Under the pieces are notes generated by a model, which saw only the letters and a list, made by a program, of their open reading frames with translations, had not been told where the DNA came from and searched no databases. Position numbers and translations under genes: made by a program. A DNA stretch of 64,000 nucleotides from a virus (lineage: Duplodnaviria > Heunggongvirae > Uroviricota > Caudoviricetes), in IMG/VR virus record IMGVR_UViG_2861079508_000001. The stretch is one strand, 5' to 3'. Positions 8,077 through 58,396 of this stretch are shown here, piece by piece (the stretch's first letter is position 1; each line of letters begins with the position of its first letter).

Positions 8077-8436
8077 TTAACCTTTCTTCATCAACTCTCG
8101 TTTGATTTCATCGGTACGCATCGTGACATCGGCAGCGGTGATCGCCTCATTCAATTTCACGATGTCCTCGATTTCCTGCGGTGACTTCTCTGCCAGATGG
8201 AAAATGGCTGCTCGAATCACGTCAGAACGAGTGAACTTCTCGAAGCGAGGGATGAACTTCATCATCTCCAGCAGTTCGAAGTATTCGTCCTCCAGTGACA
8301 TTGTGCGGCTTTTAATTTTCTCTTTGCCACGAGTCGGGCGTCCCTGTGGTCTGACTGGTTGGCGCAAAGGAGTTGTGTTCTTAGCCGGTGCATCAGGCTC
8401 TTTGCGCTTTGCTAGGTCACCCATTTTCATGGACAT
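8077..8436 (-). CDS. small partition partner protein (ParG/RHH-like), putative
   Basis: 119-aa protein with basic N-terminal tail and a C-terminal segment (FTRSDVIRAAIFHL) compatible with ribbon-helix-helix; directly downstream of ParA with start/stop overlap at 8436. Confidence 0.4.
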   Translation of the reverse strand: MSMKMGDLAKRKEPDAPAKNTTPLRQPVRPQGRPTRGKEKIKSRTMSLEDEYFELLEMMKFIPRFEKFTRSDVIRAAIFHLAEKSPQEIEDIVKLNEAITAADVTMRTDEIKRELMKKG

Positions 8437-9104
8437 TATTCTTCTTCCTCCAGACTCAACAGATAATCTACAAATTCTTCAAACTCGGCTTCCGCCTTTT
8501 TGTCGCGCTCGCTACCGGTCATTTCAAAGATAGAACGACCAGACTCTTCCGCATCATCATAGACGTTGCGGTTATATAGATTGACTGGCGCAGACTCGAT
8601 GCCAAACGTCTCAACAATCTCTTTAGCCGCCAGAATGCGAGACACTTGTGATGGCAAAGCCGGGCACTGGTTCATGACCGCGCGGACCTTCACTTTATCG
8701 TTTACATTACGAACATTGTCGATAATAGGATCGATGTCACGCAGAGATTTCAAATCACGACGCTTAGGACGAAGCGGGATAATGATAACGTCGGCCATCA
8801 GCATCGCTTGTCGCTGAATTTCGGAGTCAAAGCCACCAGCATCTACCACTACATACTCAGCTCTACCCTGAAGCGATTTTAGGTGCTTAATGATGTCATC
8901 CTGAACGTATGCAAAAGGAATCAGCTCAAGGTCTTCGTTCTGTCGACGGTCTTCACACCAGCTCGTTGTCGTGCGCTGAATATCTATATCGGTGATATAA
9001 ACCTTCTTCTTCTTTTTGACTTTCAGGCAAACGGCAATTTGCTGGGCAACGGTGGATTTGCCAGGCCCGCCCTTTGTGCCGCCAACCACAAAGATCTTGG
9101 TCAT
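8436..9104 (-). CDS. ParA/MinD-family partition ATPase
   Basis: Deviant Walker A GGTKGGPGKST at N-terminus; 222 aa. Confidence 0.7.
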   Translation of the reverse strand: MTKIFVVGGTKGGPGKSTVAQQIAVCLKVKKKKKVYITDIDIQRTTTSWCEDRRQNEDLELIPFAYVQDDIIKHLKSLQGRAEYVVVDAGGFDSEIQRQAMLMADVIIIPLRPKRRDLKSLRDIDPIIDNVRNVNDKVKVRAVMNQCPALPSQVSRILAAKEIVETFGIESAPVNLYNRNVYDDAEESGRSIFEMTGSERDKKAEAEFEEFVDYLLSLEEEE

Positions 9105-41595: not shown

Positions 41596-42486
41596 TTATG
41601 CCGGTAAAGCAATTTCTAACGGTTTATCCAAAGGTTGTTTGTCGAATGCCAGCAGTGGCAGCGTGTCAGGCAGTCGACGACCAAAGTCAGGGTTTCGATA
41701 CACCCCATACAACGGAGACGTAAAGCTCAGGTTGTGAATGTCCTTGAGCAACTTCACAATGCAGGCCTCGTCCACCAGACTGTCGGCAATGTCCTGAATC
41801 GTCGTGCCACGATTCCGCCCAGCTTTTGCCAGGGAACTGTTCTTGTGGTAGTCCGCCACCAGATCACGCAGTGCACGGCGACGACGAGACTCGCTCATTG
41901 CGAACAACTCTTTGACGATCGCCTCGTTATCACCCGGGTCGGAACGGAAATGGCGCTGGAATACACGCAGTGCACTTTCATAGCTCTTCGGTCGCTCAGG
42001 GCGGATGAACTTAAACCCTGCTTTCATGGCGAAGGGATTGTATTTGCTCATCGAGGACTGGATCTCAATGATTGGCCGGTCATGCATCCTGCTAACCAGG
42101 TTAATCATTCGATAAGAGACGCCTACGCCACGATACTGAGTATCCACAACTGAGCGACTGATCACCGCAAAGTTGTTATTCACGTACCGACCCCAGTACT
42201 GGTTAGCCACGGTGGTATTAGTGGTTGGTTTCAACTTAGGAAACATGCGGTGGCGAGGTGCCAACAGTAGTTTCGGGTAAGCCATAACCACGACGCCCAC
42301 CAGACGGTCATCAAGTTCGCAGCGATAGTAAGTTGGCGCGAAAGGTTTGCCGTCTGTTTTGTAGTGAAGCGACTTAAGAGCGTGCCAGTCCTCTACAGTT
42401 CCCTTTGTAACAGTCATTCGCTCCAGAAAGTCCAGATGACGCGGAAACTCTTCAGGGCGGTAGCGTTTAATGATGATGTCCGTCAT
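41596..42486 (-). CDS. GNAT-like acyltransferase-fold protein (function unknown)
   Basis: Segment VVDTQYRGVGVSYRMINLV...NPFAMKAGFKF resembles GNAT acetyl-CoA binding motifs A/B; 296 aa with long extensions; 4-bp overlap with upstream gene. Confidence 0.4.
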   Translation of the reverse strand: MTDIIIKRYRPEEFPRHLDFLERMTVTKGTVEDWHALKSLHYKTDGKPFAPTYYRCELDDRLVGVVVMAYPKLLLAPRHRMFPKLKPTTNTTVANQYWGRYVNNNFAVISRSVVDTQYRGVGVSYRMINLVSRMHDRPIIEIQSSMSKYNPFAMKAGFKFIRPERPKSYESALRVFQRHFRSDPGDNEAIVKELFAMSESRRRRALRDLVADYHKNSSLAKAGRNRGTTIQDIADSLVDEACIVKLLKDIHNLSFTSPLYGVYRNPDFGRRLPDTLPLLAFDKQPLDKPLEIALPA

Positions 42487-43148
42487 GAATGGACCTCATC
42501 GTGACTACCATTGTGATATTCCACCTTCACGCGTTCTTTGTAGTGCTTGGTGATCTGCATATCCGGGCGCAGCGCGTTCTTCAGGTCTTCGTGAGTCGTC
42601 GCCACCATTACCGTCGCACCAACCTTTCGAGCGGCACGCTGGAGGTTAGACGCCACAACCTGAGCGGTTACACGGTCGAGAACAGCGCCGAACTCGTCAG
42701 CAGCCCACACTTTAGCGCCTGACTCAATCAGTTTGGCAATCTTGAGACGATATTTCTGGCCGTCTGACATTTCAGAAGGCTTGCGAACAAACAGATATGC
42801 ATCGTTCAGACCAGCCATAGATAACAACCCAAGCGCATCACTGGTCGTTTTGCCCAACTGATCGATGACGTTAACCTCATTATCGAAGGTAAAATCATCG
42901 ATGGAGGCTACAGACAGCCCTTCATCCTTCATCTGTCGTTGCAACTCGCGCAGCACAACGGATTTGCCGGAACCGGATTGGCCGGTGATGTACACCACAT
43001 CGCCCTGCTTCACTTCCAGCTCCAGATTGTCGTAAAGCGTCCACTCTTTTTCGTCCAGGCCAAGCCCGAACGACTCAGCGATTTCCAACGTGCGCGTGGT
43101 TTTATTTACGCGTGTCTGAAACGATACGTTGATGATGTATTTGCTCAT
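42483..43148 (-). CDS. soluble ABC-type ATPase
   Basis: Walker A GQSGSGKS, ABC signature MSDGQKYRL, Walker B VWAADEF, H-loop TTHED; no transmembrane domain. Confidence 0.6.
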   Translation of the reverse strand: MSKYIINVSFQTRVNKTTRTLEIAESFGLGLDEKEWTLYDNLELEVKQGDVVYITGQSGSGKSVVLRELQRQMKDEGLSVASIDDFTFDNEVNVIDQLGKTTSDALGLLSMAGLNDAYLFVRKPSEMSDGQKYRLKIAKLIESGAKVWAADEFGAVLDRVTAQVVASNLQRAARKVGATVMVATTHEDLKNALRPDMQITKHYKERVKVEYHNGSHDEVHS

Positions 43149-43813
43149 GCAGCCATCTCCCCGGAAGAGATCTTCTCCGCATATGCCACAAATGCGTCTA
43201 CCCCGCTTTCTCCCGTCATTTCTTCCATGTGGGCAAGCAAATCACCAACAACAATGGCAGAGCCAGCAGGGAGCGTTTTAAAGCCCAATACGTCGACAAC
43301 ACGTACTTCTTCCGCTGCAACTTCACGACTGATCTCGGTGTGTTCATCCTTCTGTCGTTTAGTTTCTTCGCCAAGATCGATAACTAGCGAGTCGGTGTCC
43401 ATTTCTTCTGTCATACTGCCAACGAGAACATTCAACTCACGCTCTTCAAAGCCGAAAACCTCGATATCGTCCAGAACAAGCGACTCAAGCTCTTTCTGTA
43501 GCTTAATTGCATCGTAATCAATGCTGGCAAGTCGGTTATCTTCAAGGCGCTTCGCACGAACCTCGTCATCACTGAGATCATCGCGAACAATAACCGGTAC
43601 GCGCTCAAGTCCAGCAAAAATTGCAGCCTCACGGCGGCCGTGGCCAGTAATAATTACGTCGTTCTTATCGACCGTAATTGGCTGGTCAAATCCGCGCTTT
43701 TTAATGGCTGCGGCTAGATCTCGGATCTGCTGTTCATCATGCTTTTTGGCATTCATCTCATAGGGAATAAGATCTGCCGGGTCGCGATATACGATTTCAA
43801 ACTTTTTGGTCAT
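43145..43813 (-). CDS. ParB-like nuclease-domain protein
   Basis: ITGHGRREAA motif (ParB/Srx box); start set at ATG overlapping upstream stop (TAATG). Confidence 0.55.
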   Translation of the reverse strand: MTKKFEIVYRDPADLIPYEMNAKKHDEQQIRDLAAAIKKRGFDQPITVDKNDVIITGHGRREAAIFAGLERVPVIVRDDLSDDEVRAKRLEDNRLASIDYDAIKLQKELESLVLDDIEVFGFEERELNVLVGSMTEEMDTDSLVIDLGEETKRQKDEHTEISREVAAEEVRVVDVLGFKTLPAGSAIVVGDLLAHMEEMTGESGVDAFVAYAEKISSGEMAA

Positions 43814-44493
43814 TACATACGCTCCTTGTAGTAGTCGACCAGCCACACCAGAGCCTCACCAGCGTTCTCCATTTCATTACCGGTGTTAATAGCCTGCTCT
43901 TTGATGATGTTTTTTATGGTTTCTGCAACACGATCTGACGCATCGAAAGTTACTTTGAAGCGCATGGTCTGATGTTCCGCACCCACACGTTCGGTTTTCT
44001 CTCGTTTGTCGGTATCGACAGGCTCATCACTACCACGAGACAACGCCTCCAGTGCTTCAAGGTCGATTGCCGCCTCTTTTGCTAAAACCATCGAGATTTC
44101 GTCGTCATACGGGGCGATTTCAGACAGTTGATAGTCAAGTTCTGACTGAATTTCTTCAATGAAGCGTTGCAATGCGATTTGGTCGTCTTCACCGTATCGC
44201 TCGTTGTCCACCAGTGACATCTGTTTAGCTACGACATCGCTAATTTTGCCCACAGAAAGCACCGGAACCGTTGAAATTCCTTGCTCAATAGCAGCACGCC
44301 AGCGATGTTCGCCGCCGAGGATTTCAAAAAATCCATCTTCAAGTTCACGAGCCAAAATTGGCTTAAAAAAGCCCAATTTTTCGATAGAACCTTTCAGTTT
44401 TTCAAAATTCTGCGCACCAACCGAATTGGTGTTCCAGGTATTCGGGCGAAGGTTGGCAACATCAACCTGCAAAATCGTGATTTTTACATCCAT
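43813..44493 (-). CDS. ParB-like nuclease-domain protein
   Basis: LRPNTWNTN and ILGGEHRWRAA motifs (ParB N-terminal domain boxes); start set at first ATG. Confidence 0.6.
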   Translation of the reverse strand: MDVKITILQVDVANLRPNTWNTNSVGAQNFEKLKGSIEKLGFFKPILARELEDGFFEILGGEHRWRAAIEQGISTVPVLSVGKISDVVAKQMSLVDNERYGEDDQIALQRFIEEIQSELDYQLSEIAPYDDEISMVLAKEAAIDLEALEALSRGSDEPVDTDKREKTERVGAEHQTMRFKVTFDASDRVAETIKNIIKEQAINTGNEMENAGEALVWLVDYYKERM

Positions 44494-44507
44494 TTTATTG
44501 CTACAAT

Positions 44508-44536
44508 ACACTAAGTAACCACTTACTTATTATAAT
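44508..44536. promoter_or_regulatory. motif 2 element in divergent intergenic region
   Basis: ACACTAAGTAACCACTTACTTATTATAAT between ParB-like gene start and helicase gene. Confidence 0.45.
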
Positions 44537-46911: not shown

Positions 46912-47436
46912 ATGACAACCAAAGATATTACCTACGGTATCCAAGCTGAACTCTGGCCGCGAGATTACACTAACGTTGAAAAACTACTGATGTTCTGGCG
47001 CAGAGAACAAATTCCTGTAAGGGTCACTCTCGAAGATGGCCAGGCGTTTTGCATGTACGTTTATGGCCTCATGCCATCTCGTAACAAAGTTGACCTTTGC
47101 CCAGCCCCTTTTGACAAAGAAAATCGTATAAGGCTCCCACTTGAACGCATTAGTACAATTGAATCAGGTGTGGTTGACAGTATCGCTCACGATTTCAAAG
47201 GTCGACTAACAGTTCACCCTGATTATGTCGATAATCGGCCATCACGCCGCGATTTTTTTGCAATTTGCAACCAAGCCTACAAAGCAAACAAATCTATAAG
47301 GGTGTACATGGCGGATGGCCGTGAAATTGAGGGGGTGTCAGCAGGCGCAGATGCTTGTCAGGTTACACTACGTGTCGAGAACGGTAGAAAAATAGTTGTT
47401 TTGTTCGATTGGGTTGAACGAATTTTGCCTTTTTGA
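46912..47436 (+). CDS. hypothetical protein
   Basis: Start trimmed to first ATG after upstream stop; ~175 aa. Confidence 0.4.
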   Translation: MTTKDITYGIQAELWPRDYTNVEKLLMFWRREQIPVRVTLEDGQAFCMYVYGLMPSRNKVDLCPAPFDKENRIRLPLERISTIESGVVDSIAHDFKGRLTVHPDYVDNRPSRRDFFAICNQAYKANKSIRVYMADGREIEGVSAGADACQVTLRVENGRKIVVLFDWVERILPF

Positions 47437-49187: not shown

Positions 49188-49191
49188 AATC

Positions 49192-49217
49192 GAGCGCCCA
49201 CTATGGGCGCTTTTTTT
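49192..49217 (+). terminator. rho-independent terminator after gene 48957..49187
   Basis: GCGCCCACTATGGGCGC followed by TTTTTTT. Confidence 0.65.
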
Positions 49218-49238
49218 CGTTTCCAATACACCTACCAT

Positions 49239-49266
49239 AACGCGCCATCATTGGCGCGTTTTTATT
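49239..49266 (+). terminator. second tandem terminator
   Basis: ACGCGCCA-TCAT-TGGCGCGT followed by TTTTTATT. Confidence 0.55.
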
Positions 49267-49659
49267 GTCTTTAACTCACTCCAACAACATAAAAATAAGC
49301 GCCAAAATAACGCCATAGACGCGCTTTTATATCCTTACCAGTACATGCCCATTACTTAACACATTAACGCGCTTAAAACGCATTATATTGCGCTATAGAG
49401 TATGGTTAATCATTGGCTTTTAGTCTTGCTATGTGATCCGCGTTTATTTGTCGGTGCGGATCGGCATTTTGTTTTGTTCTGTATCCGCTCGCGTATTATG
49501 TGCGCGTAATTTTTCACATAATCACACCACTTAATCACGTATGTGATTATGCTACGAAAGAAATCTGGATGTCTCAGGCGACGAAAGTCATCATAATTTC
49601 CCCCGCTCACCTGTCCGACAACCGCTGGTTGGATTCCACCAGCTTCCCGATGTTTTTTC

Positions 49660-49800
49660 TACACAAAGGCGAATGCAGCCGTTTCCCGAAAAAATCCTGG
49701 CCGTTCCCCGTCGGCTCATGAATACGTTCCTCGCCGTTTCTGAAAATTTCCCTGCGGCAGCTGGTGGCTATAGAGAAAGGGCCGTTTCTGGCCCTCTTCT
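49660..49800 (+). repeat. iteron-like direct repeat array A (unit ~CCGTTTCCCGAAAA)
   Basis: At least 4 degenerate copies (AGCCGTTTCCCGAAAAAA, GCCGTTCCCCG, CGCCGTTTCTGAAAATTTCCC, GCCGTTTCTGG) in a region without convincing ORFs. Confidence 0.5.
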
Positions 49801-49803
49801 CAG

Positions 49804-50286
49804 TTACACGCCATCAAGGATGTGGATGCGGTTGCTTGCGTATACATTCAGCATAAAGTTAGCGCAAAACAGTTTCCATGTATCAACGCCAGCGGTATAC
49901 GTAATGTTTTTGCATTTAATTGCATTGTTGGCGATCCGCATCCCCTGCGATACTGCTTCATCGTCGGAAAATTTGAACGACGATTGAGTTTTAATCCAGA
50001 CAGAAATCTGCGTAGCGAACTCAATCAGCTTGGACTGGCAGAATCGCCCGGAGCGCACCGGAAGGACGAACGTTCCGAATCCAGAATTTACCACATATGC
50101 TTTCTCAAATACCCGCGAGTAACGACGATTGCCAATGATGTCGCGTGCAATAATGCATTTTTCTTGTGCTGACAGTTCTACCGTCTCATTGTCGCGCCAT
50201 GCACCAAGTACTCGTTTTTCAATGTCAGAGAACGTTACAGCGATATTGCCATGTGCGGGTGCGTTTACAGTAGCGATAAAATTCAT
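49804..50286 (-). CDS. hypothetical protein
   Basis: 160 aa; own promoter with motif-1 operator between GATAAT and RBS. Confidence 0.45.
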   Translation of the reverse strand: MNFIATVNAPAHGNIAVTFSDIEKRVLGAWRDNETVELSAQEKCIIARDIIGNRRYSRVFEKAYVVNSGFGTFVLPVRSGRFCQSKLIEFATQISVWIKTQSSFKFSDDEAVSQGMRIANNAIKCKNITYTAGVDTWKLFCANFMLNVYASNRIHILDGV

Positions 50287-50307
50287 GATTAATTCCTTAT
50301 CGTAAAT

Positions 50308-50322
50308 AACAAATTGTTTTCT
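50308..50322. promoter_or_regulatory. motif 1 operator-like palindrome
   Basis: Minus-sense layout GATAAT - 8 nt - AGAAAACAATTTGTT - RBS - ATG of gene 49804..50286. Confidence 0.55.
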
Positions 50323-50636
50323 TGTTGGTGTTAATTATCGTTGTACGAATAAGGCGTCAAAGTGGAAAGTTGCGGTAGCCGGACGGGAACAGGTGGGTTT
50401 GTCGGTTGCCTGGAGGTAAGAGGTTGGTGTTATTAGCCTGAGGGAAACAGGATGGTCATTTAAGACCACCAATGCTGGTGGCCTTAATAATTATCGCCCG
50501 ATTACGCTAAGGATCTTTTCCTCAACTGATTTGTTGTTGCGACTAAACTGCCTTGCGTATCTGATGACAGAAGAGGCGTTTTGCTTTCTGACCATCTCGG
50601 CTCTTTCCTTCAGGCGTTTCTTGAAATCGCCCATAT

Positions 50637-51011
50637 TTACCACCAGGCGCAGAAGGTCAGTCTGTTATTGTGAAAGTCGTGGTTCTTAATCAGATCTTCC
50701 ACAAGCTCTTTCAACTGCCCCACATCATGCCAGTAACCTTCGTCGTACTCCTGACTGCCGAAGAAAAAACCTTCCCGAGTAGGCAAGTACTCTTCGCAAT
50801 TGCTTTCGTTTATGTGCATCAAATGAGCTTTCAGAAGACAAATGTCATTCATCGTTAATTCTAAAAGCTCACAATTTTCGACTTCACCTACGTTGCGCTC
50901 CATCCACCCAACGAGCGCATTGAACTTACGGAAGTAAGCAACCTGCTTTCTGGATGCCTCGTTATTCAGATCGTTTTTAGGCTGTGTCTCGATATAGATA
51001 TCAAGTCCCAT
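50637..51011 (-). CDS. hypothetical acidic protein
   Basis: Start set at ATG preceded by GGAA; highly acidic; motif-1 variant upstream. Confidence 0.45.
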   Translation of the reverse strand: MGLDIYIETQPKNDLNNEASRKQVAYFRKFNALVGWMERNVGEVENCELLELTMNDICLLKAHLMHINESNCEEYLPTREGFFFGSQEYDEGYWHDVGQLKELVEDLIKNHDFHNNRLTFCAWW

Positions 51012-51067
51012 GATGGTTTCCTTATTAACTTGCTTCAGTAAAATCATTTTCACAAATCAGATAAGGC

Positions 51068-51083
51068 AGAAAACAAATTGTTA
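51068..51083. promoter_or_regulatory. motif 1 variant (AGAAAACAAATTGTTA)
   Basis: Upstream of gene 50637..51011. Confidence 0.45.
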
Positions 51084-51095
51084 TCTGGCTTAATA

Positions 51096-51120
51096 AAATG
51101 GCGCGGTTTACGCGCCATTT
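51096..51120 (-). terminator. rho-independent terminator after amber-interrupted gene
   Basis: Minus-sense AAATGGCGCG-TAAA-CCGCGCCATTT followed by TATT. Confidence 0.6.
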
Positions 51121-51128
51121 AAAGAGGA

Positions 51129-51524
51129 TTAAGCGAATACGCTTTCAGGGATTAAGGTGTCGGCAGGAATGCCAGAGGTAATGCGCAGGCCGTACTGACC
51201 AATCCAGGTAGTGTTGGTATTCAGGCTGGAGGCGAATACGGTGTTAACCATATTCATCATGGTTTCAAACACCTCTTCATCAACCTAGCGGAAGTAGTTC
51301 TCGATTTTCAGCAGCAGCGGGTCAGTTGCATCGAGAATGGACTGGTATTGAGTCGCGTACTCGCCGCCGGAGGCATCACCTTTACGCACGATCGTACTGG
51401 CCTGGACTTCGGCACCAGTTTCGGTGTTGTACGTAACAACGGTAATTTTTGCCACATTCTTACCTTCGGCGGTTTCAGAGGCATAGTAAACATCAACTGT
51501 CAGTTTTTCGCGTTTAACGGTCAT
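51129..51524 (-). pseudogene. hypothetical gene interrupted by in-frame amber (TAG) codon at 51285-51287
   Basis: 79-codon ORF ends at TAG but the same frame continues for 52 protein-like codons to TAA at 51129-51131, which is immediately followed by a hairpin+T-run terminator. Confidence 0.5.
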
Positions 51525-51562
51525 TTCACTCTCCGTAGTGTATTGGTTATTTTTATATTCTA

Positions 51563-51587
51563 TAATCGTAAGTATTTACTTACAATA
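51563..51587 (-). promoter_or_regulatory. motif 2 element
   Basis: AATCGTAAGTATTTACTTACAATAC upstream of amber-interrupted gene. Confidence 0.4.
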
Positions 51588-51649
51588 CAAAAAGCCCCGT
51601 AAGGATGGCGGGGCTGTCGTACTGTCGACTAATTGCCACTTGCACATTA

Positions 51650-51961
51650 TCAGGCTATTGCCATCACTGATGCTCTCTGAATTTCTTGCTGGGCCACGCG
51701 GTTAACTTCCATCAAGGCCAGTTCGAGCTGATGTTCCGGCCACATTCTTTGAAACGCCATCCAGCCTTTTCCACGCTGGCGACGAACATTCATTACATAA
51801 CGAGTAAAGGTGTTTTTATCGAAAGACACCGCTGTTTCACGGAACAGACGAATAGAGGTTCCATTGGCAACGATGTCCAGCAAAGTTAATTGAGCAACCA
51901 GCGCAGGCTTCTCTTTTCTCTTCTGGTCTTTGTCCAGACCAAGAACCAATGATTTTTTCAT
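51650..51961 (-). CDS. hypothetical basic protein
   Basis: Start set at internal ATG (MKKSLVLGLD...) because the motif-1 operator overlaps the longer ORF. Confidence 0.45.
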   Translation of the reverse strand: MKKSLVLGLDKDQKRKEKPALVAQLTLLDIVANGTSIRLFRETAVSFDKNTFTRYVMNVRRQRGKGWMAFQRMWPEHQLELALMEVNRVAQQEIQRASVMAIA

Positions 51962-51972
51962 CACAACTCCGT

Positions 51973-51988
51973 AAACAACTTGTTTTCT
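51973..51988. promoter_or_regulatory. motif 1 operator-like palindrome
   Basis: Between TATTATTTA (-10-like) and ATG of gene 51650..51961. Confidence 0.55.
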
Positions 51989-52115
51989 CAATGGCGTAAA
52001 TAATACCAATAAGAAAACGGCTACAAAGCATAATGATCAGGTGCATGAGCGATATGCAGGTTCTTCCCTGCGGCTACAGATTAAGTTAAGCCAGCAATGC
52101 TGGCTTTGGTTGGGA

Positions 52116-52445
52116 TTACGCGAATACCTCAAGAAACTCCTGAACGTCCCAATGCTGGACGAGGTGAAGATAGACCTTAGAAATCACGTCATTTTCGCTA
52201 TCGCATGTGAAGTAGTACTTCTGGCTGCGGTTGTATGTGTCCACACAAAATTCGCTCATATCCATAAAGTCAGCATCATCACCCAGGTCGCTAATCATCA
52301 AAGCAGGTGCATCATCACGAGTCATCAGCTCCAGCACCCATCTTGAATTAATCAGAGTGGAAGACCAACCTTCCAGCTCATAAAACTGGTCAAACTCTTT
52401 TTGAGTCAATTTCTTAATTTGGTTGATGTCGATATTTGCAAACAT
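52116..52445 (-). CDS. hypothetical small acidic protein (candidate DNA-mimic/anti-restriction-like)
   Basis: Start at ATG preceded by AAGGA; ~110 aa with many Asp/Glu; GATAAT + motif-1 operator upstream. Confidence 0.45.
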   Translation of the reverse strand: MFANIDINQIKKLTQKEFDQFYELEGWSSTLINSRWVLELMTRDDAPALMISDLGDDADFMDMSEFCVDTYNRSQKYYFTCDSENDVISKVYLHLVQHWDVQEFLEVFA

Positions 52446-52458
52446 AAAGCAATCCTTA

Positions 52459-52474
52459 AACAAGATGTTTTCTT
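52459..52474. promoter_or_regulatory. motif 1 variant (AGAAAACATCTTGTTT)
   Basis: Between GATAAT and RBS AAGGA of gene 52116..52445. Confidence 0.5.
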
Positions 52475-52789
52475 AATGGTGTTATTATCGCAATAACGCA
52501 CAGGCGAAAAAGGATTTTATTCCGGTGAATGTGGTTTTGGCAGTGAGTTTTCAGGTTCAGTACAGAGTACACTTTTTACATTATTCTGATTTAGTGGCCG
52601 AAGATGGCTGGTGGGCAGAATAATCATCTCCCCGAAAACCTACTGAAATCGATTGTGACCCGTTGGCTGTCTGGCACAATTACGCTGTAACTGGGCATTC
52701 AGAGGGAATCCAGCGGTAAGTAGGTTCGCCTTCACGTGAGCGCCTCTCTTCTTCCCGCACATTACAGGTGGGTAGCCGCAACTCTCCCT

Positions 52790-52950
52790 CTCGCTATGCC
52801 GGTACGCCGCCGTTCCTGAACCGGCATCGAGCCTTTTCCCGAAATCCACACAGGCAACTCGACCGTTTCCCTGAAAACCTCCAGCCGTTCCCCGAAGGCA
52901 ACCCAGCCGTTTCTGTAGCGGGATGCAACCTTTTCCCTGTATGGACCGAA
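52790..52950 (+). repeat. iteron-like direct repeat array B (same unit family)
   Basis: ~6 tandem ~22-bp units (CCGTTCCTGAACC, CCTTTTCCCGAAATCC, CCGTTTCCCTGAAAACC, CCGTTCCCCGAAGGC, CCGTTTCTGTAGC, CCTTTTCCCTGTATGG). Confidence 0.5.
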
Positions 52951-53049
52951 GGCTGACCGTAGGGGTGTTACGGGGGATAAAATCAGGAGTTGAATAAATA
53001 CGAAAAAGGAGGCGACACCCCTCCTTCCCTCCCCACTTATACATACCTG

Positions 53050-53900
53050 GCTTCTTCGCTATACATGTTGTGTTTTATCTGTCTCAACCTCTCTATAGGC
53101 GTTAATGCTCACTCCTTCCAGAATGTTCTATACGGCAACTATTTCTGTTGGTGAATTGGGTGTGTTGTTCTCTCTGTCGGTGTATGTGGTTTCGTTCGTT
53201 TTGCGGTGGTTCTTCTATGGGGTGTTCTCGTCGTTTTGGTGATTGTTCTTCTCCGTGTATGGAGTAATGGCAGGTGGGCGATTCCTTTCGTTGTTGTGTT
53301 TGAGTTGTTTGTCTGGAGTGTGTGAAAGGCTTTTGCAGTTATTCGTGTATTGGGTAATGGCATTTCCCGTGATTGTTGTGTTTCGTGTCTTTTGGGATTG
53401 AGAGAAACCTTGCGGTTACAGGCTTCGTTGGGGTTTCAGTGATTCTGGTGTTCTTCGCTGTTTGGGGAATGGCGTGTCGTGGGTATCGCGCGTATGAATG
53501 TTTTCGGATTGCCTGTGAAAGTTAGGTTGGTTGTCCGGTAGCCTGGGGAGAAGAGGTGGGTCTTTTCGGTAGCCTGCCATAAAGAGGTTGGTTGTTTTTG
53601 GAAATGGCATTTGTGTTATTTAGTTGTTTTGTTATGCCTGAAAATAAGTTGTTTATATGGTTGTGTAACGCAACGGGAGCGATTTTGAGCGTGTGTTTTT
53701 GTTGGTAGTGTGTTGGGTCGTCTGTGGTGAAAATTGGACGCTGTGGCGCTGTCTGCTGCGTAGAGTTACGGGTATAAGCAGTGATGTGTGAAAACGTCAA
53801 TTTTTTAGACCAAATCGGGTGAAAGCGTTGATGTTTCGTTGATCTGTTATTCAGTTGTTTTCTTGATTGTATAAACAACTATAACTTATTGATATTTAAG
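53050..53900 (+). repeat. GT-skewed non-coding region with periodic GGnTAATGGCA-type repeats
   Basis: Plus strand almost exclusively G/T-rich; recurring TGGAGTAATGGCAGG, TTGGGTAATGGCATTT, GGGGAATGGCGTG, TGGAAATGGCATTTG at ~85-130-bp spacing; also CGGTAGCCTGGGGAGAAGAGGTGGGT duplicated and related to 50400-50430. Confidence 0.5.
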
Positions 53901-55104: not shown

Positions 55105-57138
55105 TTACTTAACCTGGTGGCCAGGTTTAGCACCAGCATCCGGGCTTAACAGGAAGATATCTTTCCCGCCGGGGCCAGCAGCCATCACCATGCCTTCAGA
55201 GATACCGAAGCGCATTTTACGTGGTGCCAGGTTAGCCACCATAATGGTGTGACGACCAATCAGTGCCTGTGGATCTGGATAAGCGGAACGGATGCCTGAG
55301 AAGACATTACGCTTTTCACCACCGAGATCCAGCGTCAGGCGAAGCAGTTTGTCAGAACCTTCTACAAACTCTGCGTTTTCAATCAGCGCCACGCGCAGGT
55401 CAACTTTGGCGAAGTCGTCAAAGGTGATAGTTTCCTGAATCGGGTCGTCAGCCAGTGGGCCAGTTACCGGTGCGGCTGTGGCTTTCACTTCTTCTTTGGA
55501 TGCTTCCACCAGTGCTTCAACCTGCTTCATATCGATGCGGTTATACAGTGCCTTGAACGGATTCACTTTATGGCCCAGCAGCGGTTGCTGGATACCATCC
55601 CAGGTCAGTTCTGTATTCAGGAATGCTTCTGCACGTTCAGTCAGTTTCGGCAGTACCGGTTTCAGGTACGTCATCAGCACGCGGAACAGGTTAATGCCCA
55701 TAGAGCAAATCGCCTGCAGATCGGCATCGCGTCCTTCCTGCTTTGCCACCACCCACGGAGCCTGTTCATCAACATAGCGGTTAGCCAGGTCAGCCAGTGC
55801 CATGATTTCACGGATAGCTTTGCCAAATTCGCGGCTTTCCCATGCTTCGCCAATCACTTCAGCGGCATCAGTAAAGGTTTTGTACAGTTGCGGGTCAGCC
55901 AGTTCGCTTGCCAGCACGCCGTCAAAACGCTTGTTGATAAAGCCTGCATTACGGGAGGCCAGGTTAACCACTTTGTTAACGATATCGGCATTCACACGCT
56001 GAACGAAATCTTCCAGGTTGAGATCGATATCATCAATGCGCGAAGAGAGTTTCGCAGTGTAGTAGTAACGCAGGCTGTCGGCGTCAAAATGATTCAGCCA
56101 GGTGCTGGCTTTAATAAAGGTGCCGCGAGACTTGGACATCTTCGCGCCGTTCACCGTCACATAGCCGTGAACAAACAGGTTGGTCGGCTTGCGGAAGTTG
56201 CTGCCTTCCAGCATGGCAGGCCAGAACAGGCTGTGGAAGTAAACGATATCTTTGCCGATGAAGTGGTACAGCTCGGCGGTGGAGTCTTTCTTCCAGTATT
56301 CGTCGAAGCTGGTAGTGTCGCCGCGTTTGTCGCACAGATTCTTGAAGGAACCCATGTAGCCAATCGGCGCGTCCAGCCAGACGTAGAAGTATTTGCCCGG
56401 TGCGTTCGGAATTTCAAAACCGAAGTAAGGTGCGTCACGGGAGATATCCCACTGTTGCAGGCCAGATTCAAACCACTCCTGCATTTTGTTTGCCACCTGC
56501 TCCTGCAACGCACCGCTGCGGGTCCATGCCTGCAACATTTCGCTGAAAGAAGGCAGATCAAAGAAGAAGTGTTCGGAATCACGCATTACCGGTGTAGCGC
56601 CAGAAACCACTGATTTCGGCTCGATCAGTTCCGTCGGGCTGTATGTCGCGCCGCAGACTTCACAGTTATCGCCGTATTGATCCGGCGCTTTACATTTCGG
56701 GCATGTGCCTTTTACAAAACGGTCCGGCAGGAACATGCCTTTTTCCGGGTCGTACAGCTGAGAGATGGTGCGGTTTTTAATAAAACCGTTCTCTTTCAGG
56801 CGAGTATAGATAAGCTCGGACAACTGACGGTTCTCTTCGCTGTGCGTCGAGTGATAGTTGTCATAGCTGATGTTAAAGCCTGCGAAATCAGTCTGATGTT
56901 CCTGACTCATTTCGCCAATCATCTGTTCCGGTGTGATACCAAGCTGCTGTGCTTTCAGCATGATTGGCGTACCGTGGGCATCGTCGGCACAGATGAAATT
57001 AACCTCGTGGCCGCGCATTCGCTGGTAACGAACCCAGACATCAGCCTGGATGTGCTCCAGCATATGGCCGAGGTGGATTGAGCCGTTAGCGTACGGCAGC
57101 GCGCACGTCACCAGAATTTTCTTCGCGACTTGGGTCAT
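55105..57138 (-). CDS. metG: methionine--tRNA ligase
   Basis: 677-aa product from the ATG at 57136-57138 (track ORF is 43 codons longer from an upstream alternative start); HLGH and KMSKS class-I motifs; sequence I recognise as Escherichia-type MetG. Confidence 0.95.
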
Positions 57139-57295
57139 AGTAGGCATTACTTCTTTGTAGTGAAAAGGGGCTTGATAGTAACAAAATGGCCTTATGTCTG
57201 CCATGTGATAACAGCATTTCTCATAAATGATTAAATGTCGTAGCTGGAGTACACTACAAGGCGACAATTGCGCAAATTAAAATAAAGGAGACGGG

Positions 57296-58396
57296 ATGAG
57301 CGAGTCCAAATCGCCGGATGCCCTGAGAGCAATGGTAGCCGGTACGCTGGCTAATTTTCAGCACCCAACCCTGAAACACAACCTGACTACGCTTAAAGCG
57401 TTACACCATGTTGCGTTGATGGATGACACACTGCATGTCGAACTAATCATGCCTTTCGTGTGGAATAAGCCTTTTGAAGACCTGAAAGAGCAATGTAGTG
57501 GTGATCTGCTCCGTATCACTGGCGCAAAGGCTATTGACTGGAAGCTGTCGTACAACATTGCCACGCTTAAGCGCGTCAAAAACCAACCAGGCATTAATGG
57601 CGTTAAGAACATTATCGCCGTCAGCTCAGGCAAGGGCGGCGTGGGTAAATCCTCCACGGCGGTAAACCTGGCACTGGCGTTGGCTGCTGAAGGTGCGAAA
57701 GTTGGTATTTTGGATGCCGATATCTATGGTCCATCAATTCCAACCATGCTGGGCGCGGAAAACCAACGTCCAACCTCACCGGACGGTACTCACATGGCAC
57801 CTATCATGTCTCATGGCCTGGCAACCAACTCTATTGGTTATCTGGTCACCGACGACAATGCAATGGTGTGGCGTGGACCGATGGCCAGCAAGGCGCTGAT
57901 GCAGATGTTGCAGGAAACACTGTGGCCTGATCTGGACTATCTCGTTCTCGATATGCCACCGGGCACTGGTGATATTCAATTGACGCTGGCGCAGAACATT
58001 CCTGTAACTGGTGCGGTTGTGGTAACTACGCCGCAAGACATCGCGCTGATCGATGCGAAGAAAGGCATTGTGATGTTCGAAAAAGTCGAAGTGCCGGTAC
58101 TGGGTATCGTTGAAAACATGAGTGTGCATATTTGCAGTAACTGCGGTCATCACGAGCCAATTTTTGGCACCGGTGGCGCACAGAAACTGGCCGAGAAATA
58201 CAACACGCAGTTGTTAGGCCAAATGCCACTTCATATCTCTCTTCGTGAAGATCTGGATAACGGAACACCAACCGTTATTAGTCGTCCAGATAGTGAATTT
58301 ACGGCTATTTATCGTGACCTCGCAGATCGCGTTGCTGCCCAAATGTATTGGCAAGGTGAAGTAATACCTGGCGAAATCGCATTCCGCGCAGTGTGA
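57296..58396 (+). CDS. apbC: iron-sulfur cluster carrier ATPase ApbC/Mrp
   Basis: P-loop [10 protein letters not shown], CxxC (CSNCGH); divergent from metG as in the Escherichia chromosome. Confidence 0.95.

Follow-up and report, generated by a model that had tools for sequence, protein, structure and literature searches.

Centromeres bound by ribbon-helix-helix proteins typically consist of two phased clusters of direct repeats, as in R1 parC, pB171 parC1/parC2 and TP228 parH, and in the phage-plasmid N15 the centromeres lie far from the sop genes. The maintenance of SSU5-type phage-plasmids, which are frequent in clinical Enterobacterales and carry resistance genes, has barely been studied. 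No centromere or lytic origin has been mapped in this family, and our literature search found neither an SSU5-type centromere or lytic origin nor SSU5 termini nor the motif described below. Here we analyze two direct-repeat arrays in a 64,000-nucleotide stretch (IMG/VR record IMGVR_UViG_2861079508_000001; hereafter, the window) of such an element. These arrays are the best candidates for a cis-acting site of this kind, and appear to be an undescribed member of the known class of repeat arrays that comprises centromeres, iterons and operator clusters. Our first-ranked, albeit tentative, reading is that they serve as centromere-like sites for the ParA/ParG-like pair that the element encodes.

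Two phased repeat arrays and their conservation

The 3.9 kb around the arrays best matched the Escherichia coli plasmid pSJC33-2 (99.7% identity), of which the window covers approximately positions 4.3–67 kb. This region was matched in 242 E. coli records, which are plasmids of ~110 kb, and all 246 of 246 E. coli matches were plasmid-borne (0 chromosomal), in agreement with the autonomous, plasmid-like maintenance that an initial sequence-only reading of the window had proposed. The SSU5-type element is present in 242 of 5,426 complete E. coli genomes and in ~800 plasmid-collection records. Annotated genes of pSJC33-2 include virion genes (tail, capsid, portal and terminase), and the plasmid encodes its own replication enzymes (DnaB-like helicase, primase, DnaE, ligase and RNase HI), together with a tyrosine recombinase, a RepB-family initiator and a ParA-type ATPase; this reference also carries the resistance gene dfrA51. 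Judged by these matches, the window is DNA of an SSU5-type phage-plasmid.

The two arrays, originally placed at ~49660–49800 and ~52790–52950 in the same orientation, are real. The pattern RCCKTTYCYB has 12 plus-strand matches in the 64 kb, 10 of which fall within the arrays, and the largest cluster within 130 bp holds six matches compared with at most two in 300 shuffles. For the left array alone, a Poisson estimate gave ~4e-9 after correction for window number. All copies lie on the plus strand, both arrays point the same way, and they are separated by 3.1 kb (Table 1). The right array has six units at 52809–52928, matching the original count of about six, with start-to-start spacings of 22, 31, 22, 22 and 22 bp. 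Four or more units had been counted in the left array, of which three phased ones stand: GCCGTTTCCCGAAAA (49678), GCCGTTCCCCGTCGG (49700) and GCCGTTTCTGAAAAT (49733). A fourth core copy at 49781, 48 bp after the start at 49733, forms the loop and 3′ stem of the p160 intrinsic-terminator hairpin and is probably not a separate binding unit; we thus counted three. One further core copy lies at 51764, inside the p103 gene.

The consensus of the core is best given as GCC(G/T)TT(T/C)CC(C)(T)G, since the GAAAA tail of the unit as first described occurs only in some units. Information is confined to approximately positions −4 to +10 of each unit, with ~10–11 of 22 bp conserved and the rest spacer. Tandem Repeats Finder (minimum score 30), which had been suggested as a check, reported neither array because so little of each unit is conserved and the spacers are divergent. 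Since 22 bp corresponds to two helical turns and 31–34 bp to three, the cores all lie on one face of the helix. The GC content of the arrays is 55–60%. As originally noted, the arrays contain no credible open reading frames (ORFs): RefSeq annotation of pSJC33-2 places nothing over either array, no feature lay under the match in any of the 40 listed records of the plasmids that match the right-array region, and indels in the alignment of the arrays across relatives are not multiples of three. We also scanned for other repeat clusters with a home-made procedure, but its threshold let through too much noise for weaker arrays elsewhere to be excluded. The arrays are phased, strongly selected DNA–protein recognition arrays; their reality, phasing, deep conservation and independence from the Rep gene are shown by the analysis, as is the absence of RNA structure, whereas the identity of the binder and the partition function are inferred.

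The right-array region occurs in 716 plasmids from Klebsiella, Escherichia, Enterobacter, Salmonella, Citrobacter, Cronobacter and others. We compared the window with SSU5, pHCM2, Cyrano, PhiR41_1, a Klebsiella phage and three divergent contigs, as well as with plasmids of Citrobacter, Enterobacter, Cronobacter, Klebsiella variicola and Escherichia fergusonii. The place and orientation of both arrays were unchanged in all of them. The sequence-only reading had made its case depend on conservation in relatives, and the arrays are kept in every SSU5-like relative examined. In all SSU5-like loci the right-array spacing is 22, 31, 22, 22, 22 or 22, 22, 22 bp and the left-array spacing 22, 33/34 bp, and core and spacing are kept but the sequence of the spacers drifts: the 31-bp spacer, for instance, has the same length and a different sequence in the E. 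coli and Salmonella groups. The first left unit (49678) is invariant in 11 of 11 aligned relatives. An exact-pattern scan of IMG/VR found 22-bp-phased arrays in SSU5-like contigs only, 1.5–4.2 kb apart, and in the shortest case (locus L093, 1.5 kb) p160 and p103 are the sole genes between them. A pattern scan of genome contigs returned mostly chance single matches among the matches listed.

Conservation extends to very distant carriers. The core CCGTTTCCCGAAA is retained in K. ozaenae CP027615, which has another replicon type and a p160 of 33% identity, and in Moellerella pW18-2-b, in which ParA is 50% and p216 36% identical. Likewise, the core CCGTTTCCCG(AAA) is unchanged in the K. ozaenae and Moellerella plasmids. 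Proteins of the Moellerella plasmid are 28–50% identical, and p160 and p103 were undetectable there by tblastn. In Yersinia pestis pMT1 the left array is intact and the right side is cut by IS1541. The arrays are among the most conserved non-coding features of the SSU5-like family.

A ParG-like protein as candidate binder

How could the arrays serve partition? Each site would be a 10–11-bp core, GCC(G/T)TTYCC(C), bound on double-stranded DNA by a sequence-specific protein. In the mechanism that we propose, dimers of the ParG-like protein would coat each array, the two arrays, 3.1 kb apart, might pair or loop into one partition complex, and ParA would move this complex over the nucleoid. The ParA/ParG-like pair is the only partition system of the element. 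No repeat array lies beside parA or the ParG-like gene in any relative examined, and the centromere of this system must thus be elsewhere. Furthermore, the copy number is ~5.5 per cell (PMC9928086). A 110-kb replicon at this number needs a centromere. We also counted in favor of the partition reading that the arrays are shielded by terminators and nearly silent in the lysogen. In the lysogen transcriptomes of LF82/Cyrano, expression is near background for an ORF drawn over the right array and at the floor for one over the neighboring skewed tract (PMC9928086 supplement).

The distribution of the ParG-like gene parallels that of the arrays. It is found in 796 plasmids, versus 716–801 for the arrays and p160, and is at least 90% identical in 735 of the 796. 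Its motif IKSRT(M/V)S(L/M)EDE...RSDV(I/F)RAA is invariant as far as Moellerella, where overall identity is 28%; the signature motif of p103 is lost in Moellerella. With IKSRTxS as putative DNA-reading strand and RSDVxRAA as second helix, this pattern fits a strand-helix-helix layout, as would be expected of a ribbon-helix-helix protein. We propose the ParG-like protein as the candidate binder; its putative DNA-reading strand is conserved as deeply as the DNA core.

Several observations weigh against this assignment. The ParA–ParG-like pair invoked by the sequence-only reading is indeed present on the element, but the par genes (8077–9104) lie 40 kb from the arrays and not adjacent to them. Type Ib centromere-binding proteins normally repress their own operon via centromere-like repeats, and no core copy was found upstream of parA in the window, Klebsiella, pHCM2, Serratia or Moellerella. 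A 22-bp unit of which half is conserved is long for a ribbon-helix-helix dimer. Matches to the ribbon-helix-helix fold were sub-threshold (RHH_1, E 0.035 with the Moellerella homologue; aCcr1, E 2.3e-4), hhalign against a ParG sequence aligned the expected strand at 0.1% probability, and a profile of the ParG-like alignment had no match among PDB sequences. Y. pestis pMT1 has the intact left array and no ParG-like gene, and its left array could be a recent relic. Conversely, a Serratia fragment encodes ParA and the ParG-like protein but has 1–2 degenerate units in 18.5 kb. p160 and p103 always lie between the arrays, and this points to a local function. Finally, the shared conservation of the ParG-like protein and the arrays is a correlation and not binding.

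Other binders and functions

The local function suggested by this arrangement is a possible explanation, which we consider less probable than partition. Here, the arrays would be local operators bound by p103, possibly with p160, and a loop of the 3-kb segment would autoregulate or insulate the p160–p103 module and its cargo. Both genes are bracketed by the arrays in every relative and are alone there in locus L093, and p103 has an isoelectric point of 10.5 and contains the extra core copy at 51764. That copy, however, encodes the conserved residues G-K-G-W and may reflect coding constraint alone. Neither protein follows the conservation of the DNA core, which is invariant: p103 is ~60% identical between the E. 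coli and Salmonella/Klebsiella groups and 18% identical or undetectable in Moellerella, and p160 diverges to the extent given above for K. ozaenae. Moreover, ~290 bp separate the right array from the block's nearest promoter. A confident structural model predicts a four-stranded sheet and a long helix for p103, while the AlphaFold model of p160 was too poor for use (predicted local distance difference test score, 58.7). Searches of Pfam, NCBIfam, PHROGs and PDB sequences placed p160, p124, p131, p103, p109 and p216 only in families that have no assigned function. We rejected p216 as a binder, as it occurs in the Serratia element without an adjacent array and is 36–49% identical in distant carriers.

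It is doubtful that the arrays are cis elements for phage-mode (lytic) replication, with an initiator acting at two sites and a skewed tract beside the right array as an R-loop, unwinding or priming zone. Arrays kilobases apart have precedents in P4, SPP1 and R6K, and 22-bp phasing is typical of iterons. Beyond the right array there is always a conserved box and then an 800–1000-bp tract with a GC skew of +0.3 to +0.5, whose composition would favor R-loops if it were transcribed rightward. The element has its own DnaB-like helicase, primase, DnaE, ligase, RNase HI and superfamily 2 (SF2) helicase, the operon of the SF2 helicase ends beside the left array, and the region is silent in lysogeny. 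On the other hand, neither array has an AT-rich unwinding element or a DnaA box beside it, both are GC-rich, and we found no initiator gene and no convincing rightward promoter. Across the whole plasmid, cumulative GC skew changes monotonically and gives no indication of an origin.

A related and equally doubtful idea is that the right array, box, 850-bp tract and left array constitute one undescribed cis-acting module. Such a module might, with little probability, be a lytic origin that fires via a protein-nucleated R-loop, or a combined partition and replication-control locus bound by p103 with a new fold. On this reading, it would have been conserved from Enterobacteriaceae to Morganellaceae as the whole family depends on it, which we regard as improbable to the same degree. 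If a lytic origin or a p103-bound looped module proved true, it would be a new regulatory element of a large phage family. The skewed tract is an unexplained companion of the arrays, and could make them more interesting if the two act together.

Less likely again, the arrays could be sites for another conserved factor, such as an Enterobacterales host protein, the two ParB-N-domain proteins encoded at 43145–44511, or the small terminase. The invariance of the core from Escherichia to Moellerella would follow from a conserved host factor. The ParB-like genes and their adjacent ATPase lie 5 kb away and are 65–87% identical to K. ozaenae, with ParB2 68% identical to Moellerella. However, phased arrays of the core were found only in SSU5-like DNA, and we know of no matching consensus for a host binding site. 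No deposited virion genome has the arrays at its ends, and 8.5 kb separate them from the terminase genes.

That one strand gives rise to a structured or protein-sponging RNA is highly improbable. Read on the minus strand the arrays contain GGA-rich words (GGGAAACGG), and an FljA-like RNA-binding protein is encoded 2.3 kb away, but the arrays do not form a conserved RNA structure: RNAalifold gave penalizing covariation terms on both strands (+3.09 and +2.55 kcal/mol) with compensatory pairs at 3–4 out of 43–45, and Rfam searches at permissive E-values yielded chance-level matches only. Terminators precede the arrays, which show scarcely any transcription in the lysogen, and their 22-bp spacing fits DNA helical phasing.

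The most improbable reading is that RepB binds the arrays as iterons or as a copy-control locus of the plasmid replicon, and direct sequence comparison led us to reject it. As in iteron plasmids, the repeats are tandem and spaced 22 bp apart, and like iterons (17–22-bp direct repeats) they are helically phased, with spacings of 22 or 31–34 bp that are kept in relatives. The only Rep gene of pSJC33-2 (RepB family; 84319–85533), however, lies ~30 kb from the arrays and beyond the window. At 84.0–86.2 kb (locus L003 18298–20086), repB has at least 17 iterons TATGCTGTCAGCGGT on both sides at 21-bp spacing, and this region is the true plasmid origin, a classical iteron replicon. These iterons are unrelated to the array repeats GCCGTTTCCC. 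Within ~450 bp of either array there is no DnaA box and no 40-mer with at least 80% A+T, and no initiator gene is adjacent. Furthermore, the repeats do not differ when the replicon type differs, as the arrays are unchanged across three types (IncFIB, rep_cluster_763 and rep_cluster_2469). The arrays are thus independent of the plasmid Rep, and belong to the conserved SSU5-type backbone rather than to the exchangeable plasmid replicon. The initial suggestion that they are a binding array for a replication initiator or a dedicated origin is accordingly unsupported.

Ends of a transposon or transposable phage (MuA 22-bp sites), to which GTTTCnnTGAAAA presumably bears a resemblance, were rejected: such ends carry repeat clusters in inverted orientation and come with a transposase gene, whereas both arrays point the same way and the annotated backbone contains no transposase.

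Surrounding features and comparison with known systems

The block between the arrays, first described as having four genes, contains five minus-strand ORFs (p160, p124, p131, p103 and p109) with promoter-like sequence before each, of which p160 and p103 are the minimal gene set found between arrays. The p131 frame, interrupted in the window, is intact (131 amino acids) in pSJC33-2 and other relatives, and the interruption is either a pseudogene or a sequencing error. In the stem of the p160 terminator, both sides change together among relatives (GGGCC/GGCCC versus GGGGC/GCCCC).

Table 1 Coordinates of the arrays, the par genes and neighboring features in the window.
Feature	Position	Strand	Description
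ParG-like partner	8077..8436	-	119 aa; basic tail and putative ribbon-helix-helix fold; candidate array binder
ParA-type partition ATPase	8436..9104	-	222 aa; Pfam AAA_31, MipZ, CbiA, ParA; phrog_164 'ParA-like partition protein'
Two strong intrinsic terminators	49192..49260	+	-31.2 kcal/mol, z -6.7; kept in all relatives
Left array	49678..49754	+	3 phased units starting at 49678, 49700, 49733; spacing 22, 33 bp
p160 terminator hairpin	49767..49795	-	-17.7 kcal/mol, z -3.9; holds core-like copy 49781
p160 gene	49804..50286	-	phrog_1641, pI (isoelectric point) 9.2; always just inside left array
p124 gene	50637..51011	-	phrog_7971; variable cargo, other small genes instead in relatives
p131 gene	51129..51524	-	phrog_2473; in-frame TAG at 51285-51287 in window
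p103 gene	51650..51961	-	Small basic protein, pI 10.5
p109 gene	52116..52445	-	phrog_7645, acidic; variable cargo
Right array	52809..52949	+	6 phased units: 52809, 52831, 52862, 52884, 52906, 52928
Conserved non-coding box (GTTACGGGGGAT...TTGAAT...ACG)	52950..53002		~50 bp, adjoins right array; nearly invariant across family
Terminator-like hairpin and T-run	53003..53029	-	Weak, z -1.7; partly conserved; upstream of right array in minus-strand sense
G+T-skewed gene-free tract	53030..53900		~850 bp; plus strand G+T-rich (68%)

To the left, the two strong terminators end a plus-strand operon that encodes the SF2 helicase, the FljA-like protein, p216 and small ORFs, and shield the left array from rightward transcription. 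Between this convergent operon and the left array lie ~470 bp of hairpin-rich non-coding DNA (49190–49660). This stretch, which is conserved in relatives, has several stems resembling terminators, WAACGCG words that recur and an inverted repeat of 10 bp (CATAATCACA/TGTGATTATG); a small RNA or more protein sites may lie inside. Chi sites (GCTGGTGG) occur on the plus strand at 49760, 50474 and 52607, i.e., three in the same orientation within 2.9 kb, versus six on the plus strand of the 64-kb window. The site at 49760 abuts the left array and is not kept in SSU5 or PhiR41_1.

To the right, the non-coding box is still recognizable in K. ozaenae, Serratia and Moellerella. The plus strand of the skewed tract is 39% T, 29% G, 18% A and 14% C, with a GC skew of up to +0.5. 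Such a tract lies beside the right array in every relative profiled (a set that left out Moellerella), very distant ones included, and is weaker in the Serratia fragment. The tract could serve as an R-loop-prone zone, encode a long C+A-rich RNA of the lytic phase, or act in recombination or packaging.

A shared promoter-plus-leader precedes many genes, and consists of GATAAT or CTATAT, 8–9 nt, and then (T)AAGAAAACAANTTGTTT, ending 15–35 nt before the start codon. Minus-strand positions include 6225, 9155, 50322, 51086, 51988, 52473, 54972, 55023, 61554, 62268 and 62997. When at most two mismatches are allowed, there are 14 loose matches on the window's minus strand and, in pSJC33-2, 33 on the two strands together, and a subset of them precede start codons, that of parA included; the copy before parA is conserved in Klebsiella, pHCM2, Serratia and Moellerella. 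The module resembles either a dispersed operator through which a global repressor would act or a 5′ leader shared by genes under a post-transcriptional regulator. The FljA-like protein (46912–47433, plus strand) matches Pfam Flag1_repress (E 1.5e-84), with a weak Hfq/Sm-like match in its second half, and its sequence resembles a pair of Sm-like repeats. FljA itself represses flagellin translation by binding mRNA, and the FljA-like protein could target host flagellin or the shared leader.

A conserved minus-strand operon (41596–44511) immediately upstream of the terminase genes encodes the two ParB-N-domain proteins, an ATP-binding-cassette-type ATPase and a 296-amino-acid protein. It is 65–87% identical to that of the distant K. 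ozaenae relative, and possible roles are partition, packaging or anti-defense. At 55105–58396, the near-native host genes metG (methionyl-tRNA synthetase) and apbC are present as host-derived plasmid cargo and do not mark a chromosomal junction. An IS1 remnant adjoins them in pSJC33-2, and both genes are also present in Cyrano and PhiR41_1.

The arrays give an experimental handle on SSU5-type phage-plasmids through binding, stabilization, incompatibility and curing assays. They also provide a compact sequence signature for detection of the family, and a test case for a partition system whose centromere is remote from its genes.

Among known systems, the arrays lack the features of Rep iterons other than phased tandem repeats, and share those of type Ib centromeres in part. 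Phased repeats, a small Walker-type ParA and a candidate binding protein that is co-conserved with the repeats are all present; a centromere adjacent to the par operon and the motif in the par promoter are not. The type Ib/II systems TP228 parH/ParG, pB171 parC1/parC2 and R1 parC/ParR likewise have two separate, helically phased clusters of direct repeats on a low-copy large replicon that needs active partition. Like the element described here, they also combine a small ParA ATPase with a small basic partner that has a flexible basic tail; the ribbon-helix-helix fold of the ParG-like partner is putative. In contrast to these systems, the arrays are 40 kb from the par genes, the par promoter is without the motif, the arrays flank p160/p103 and not the par operon, and the units are 22 bp long with 10–11 bp conserved rather than contiguous units of 4–11 bp. 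N15 (sopAB and four remote sites) is likewise a phage-plasmid with partition sites far from the partition genes and within the phage part. Its sites, however, are single inverted repeats bound by the ParB-type SopB, whereas those of the window are direct-repeat arrays with a candidate ribbon-helix-helix binder.

RepFIB/Rep_3 iterons, those of the element's own RepB included, are likewise direct repeats in two clusters with a spacing of 21–22 bp, but the array repeats are unrelated in sequence, have no rep gene, DnaA box or AT-rich region beside them, and are conserved across relatives with different replicons. P4 ori/crr and SPP1 oriL/oriR likewise place two clusters of short repeats a few kb apart in a phage genome; here, no initiator was identified and there is no AT-rich element. 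Finally, lambda OL/OR around cI-rexAB likewise have sites spaced 22–24 bp that flank a 2–3-kb block, inside which, in our element, the candidate p103 is encoded. The lambda operators are palindromes over divergent promoters, whereas the units described here are directional, share one orientation and overlap no recognizable promoter.

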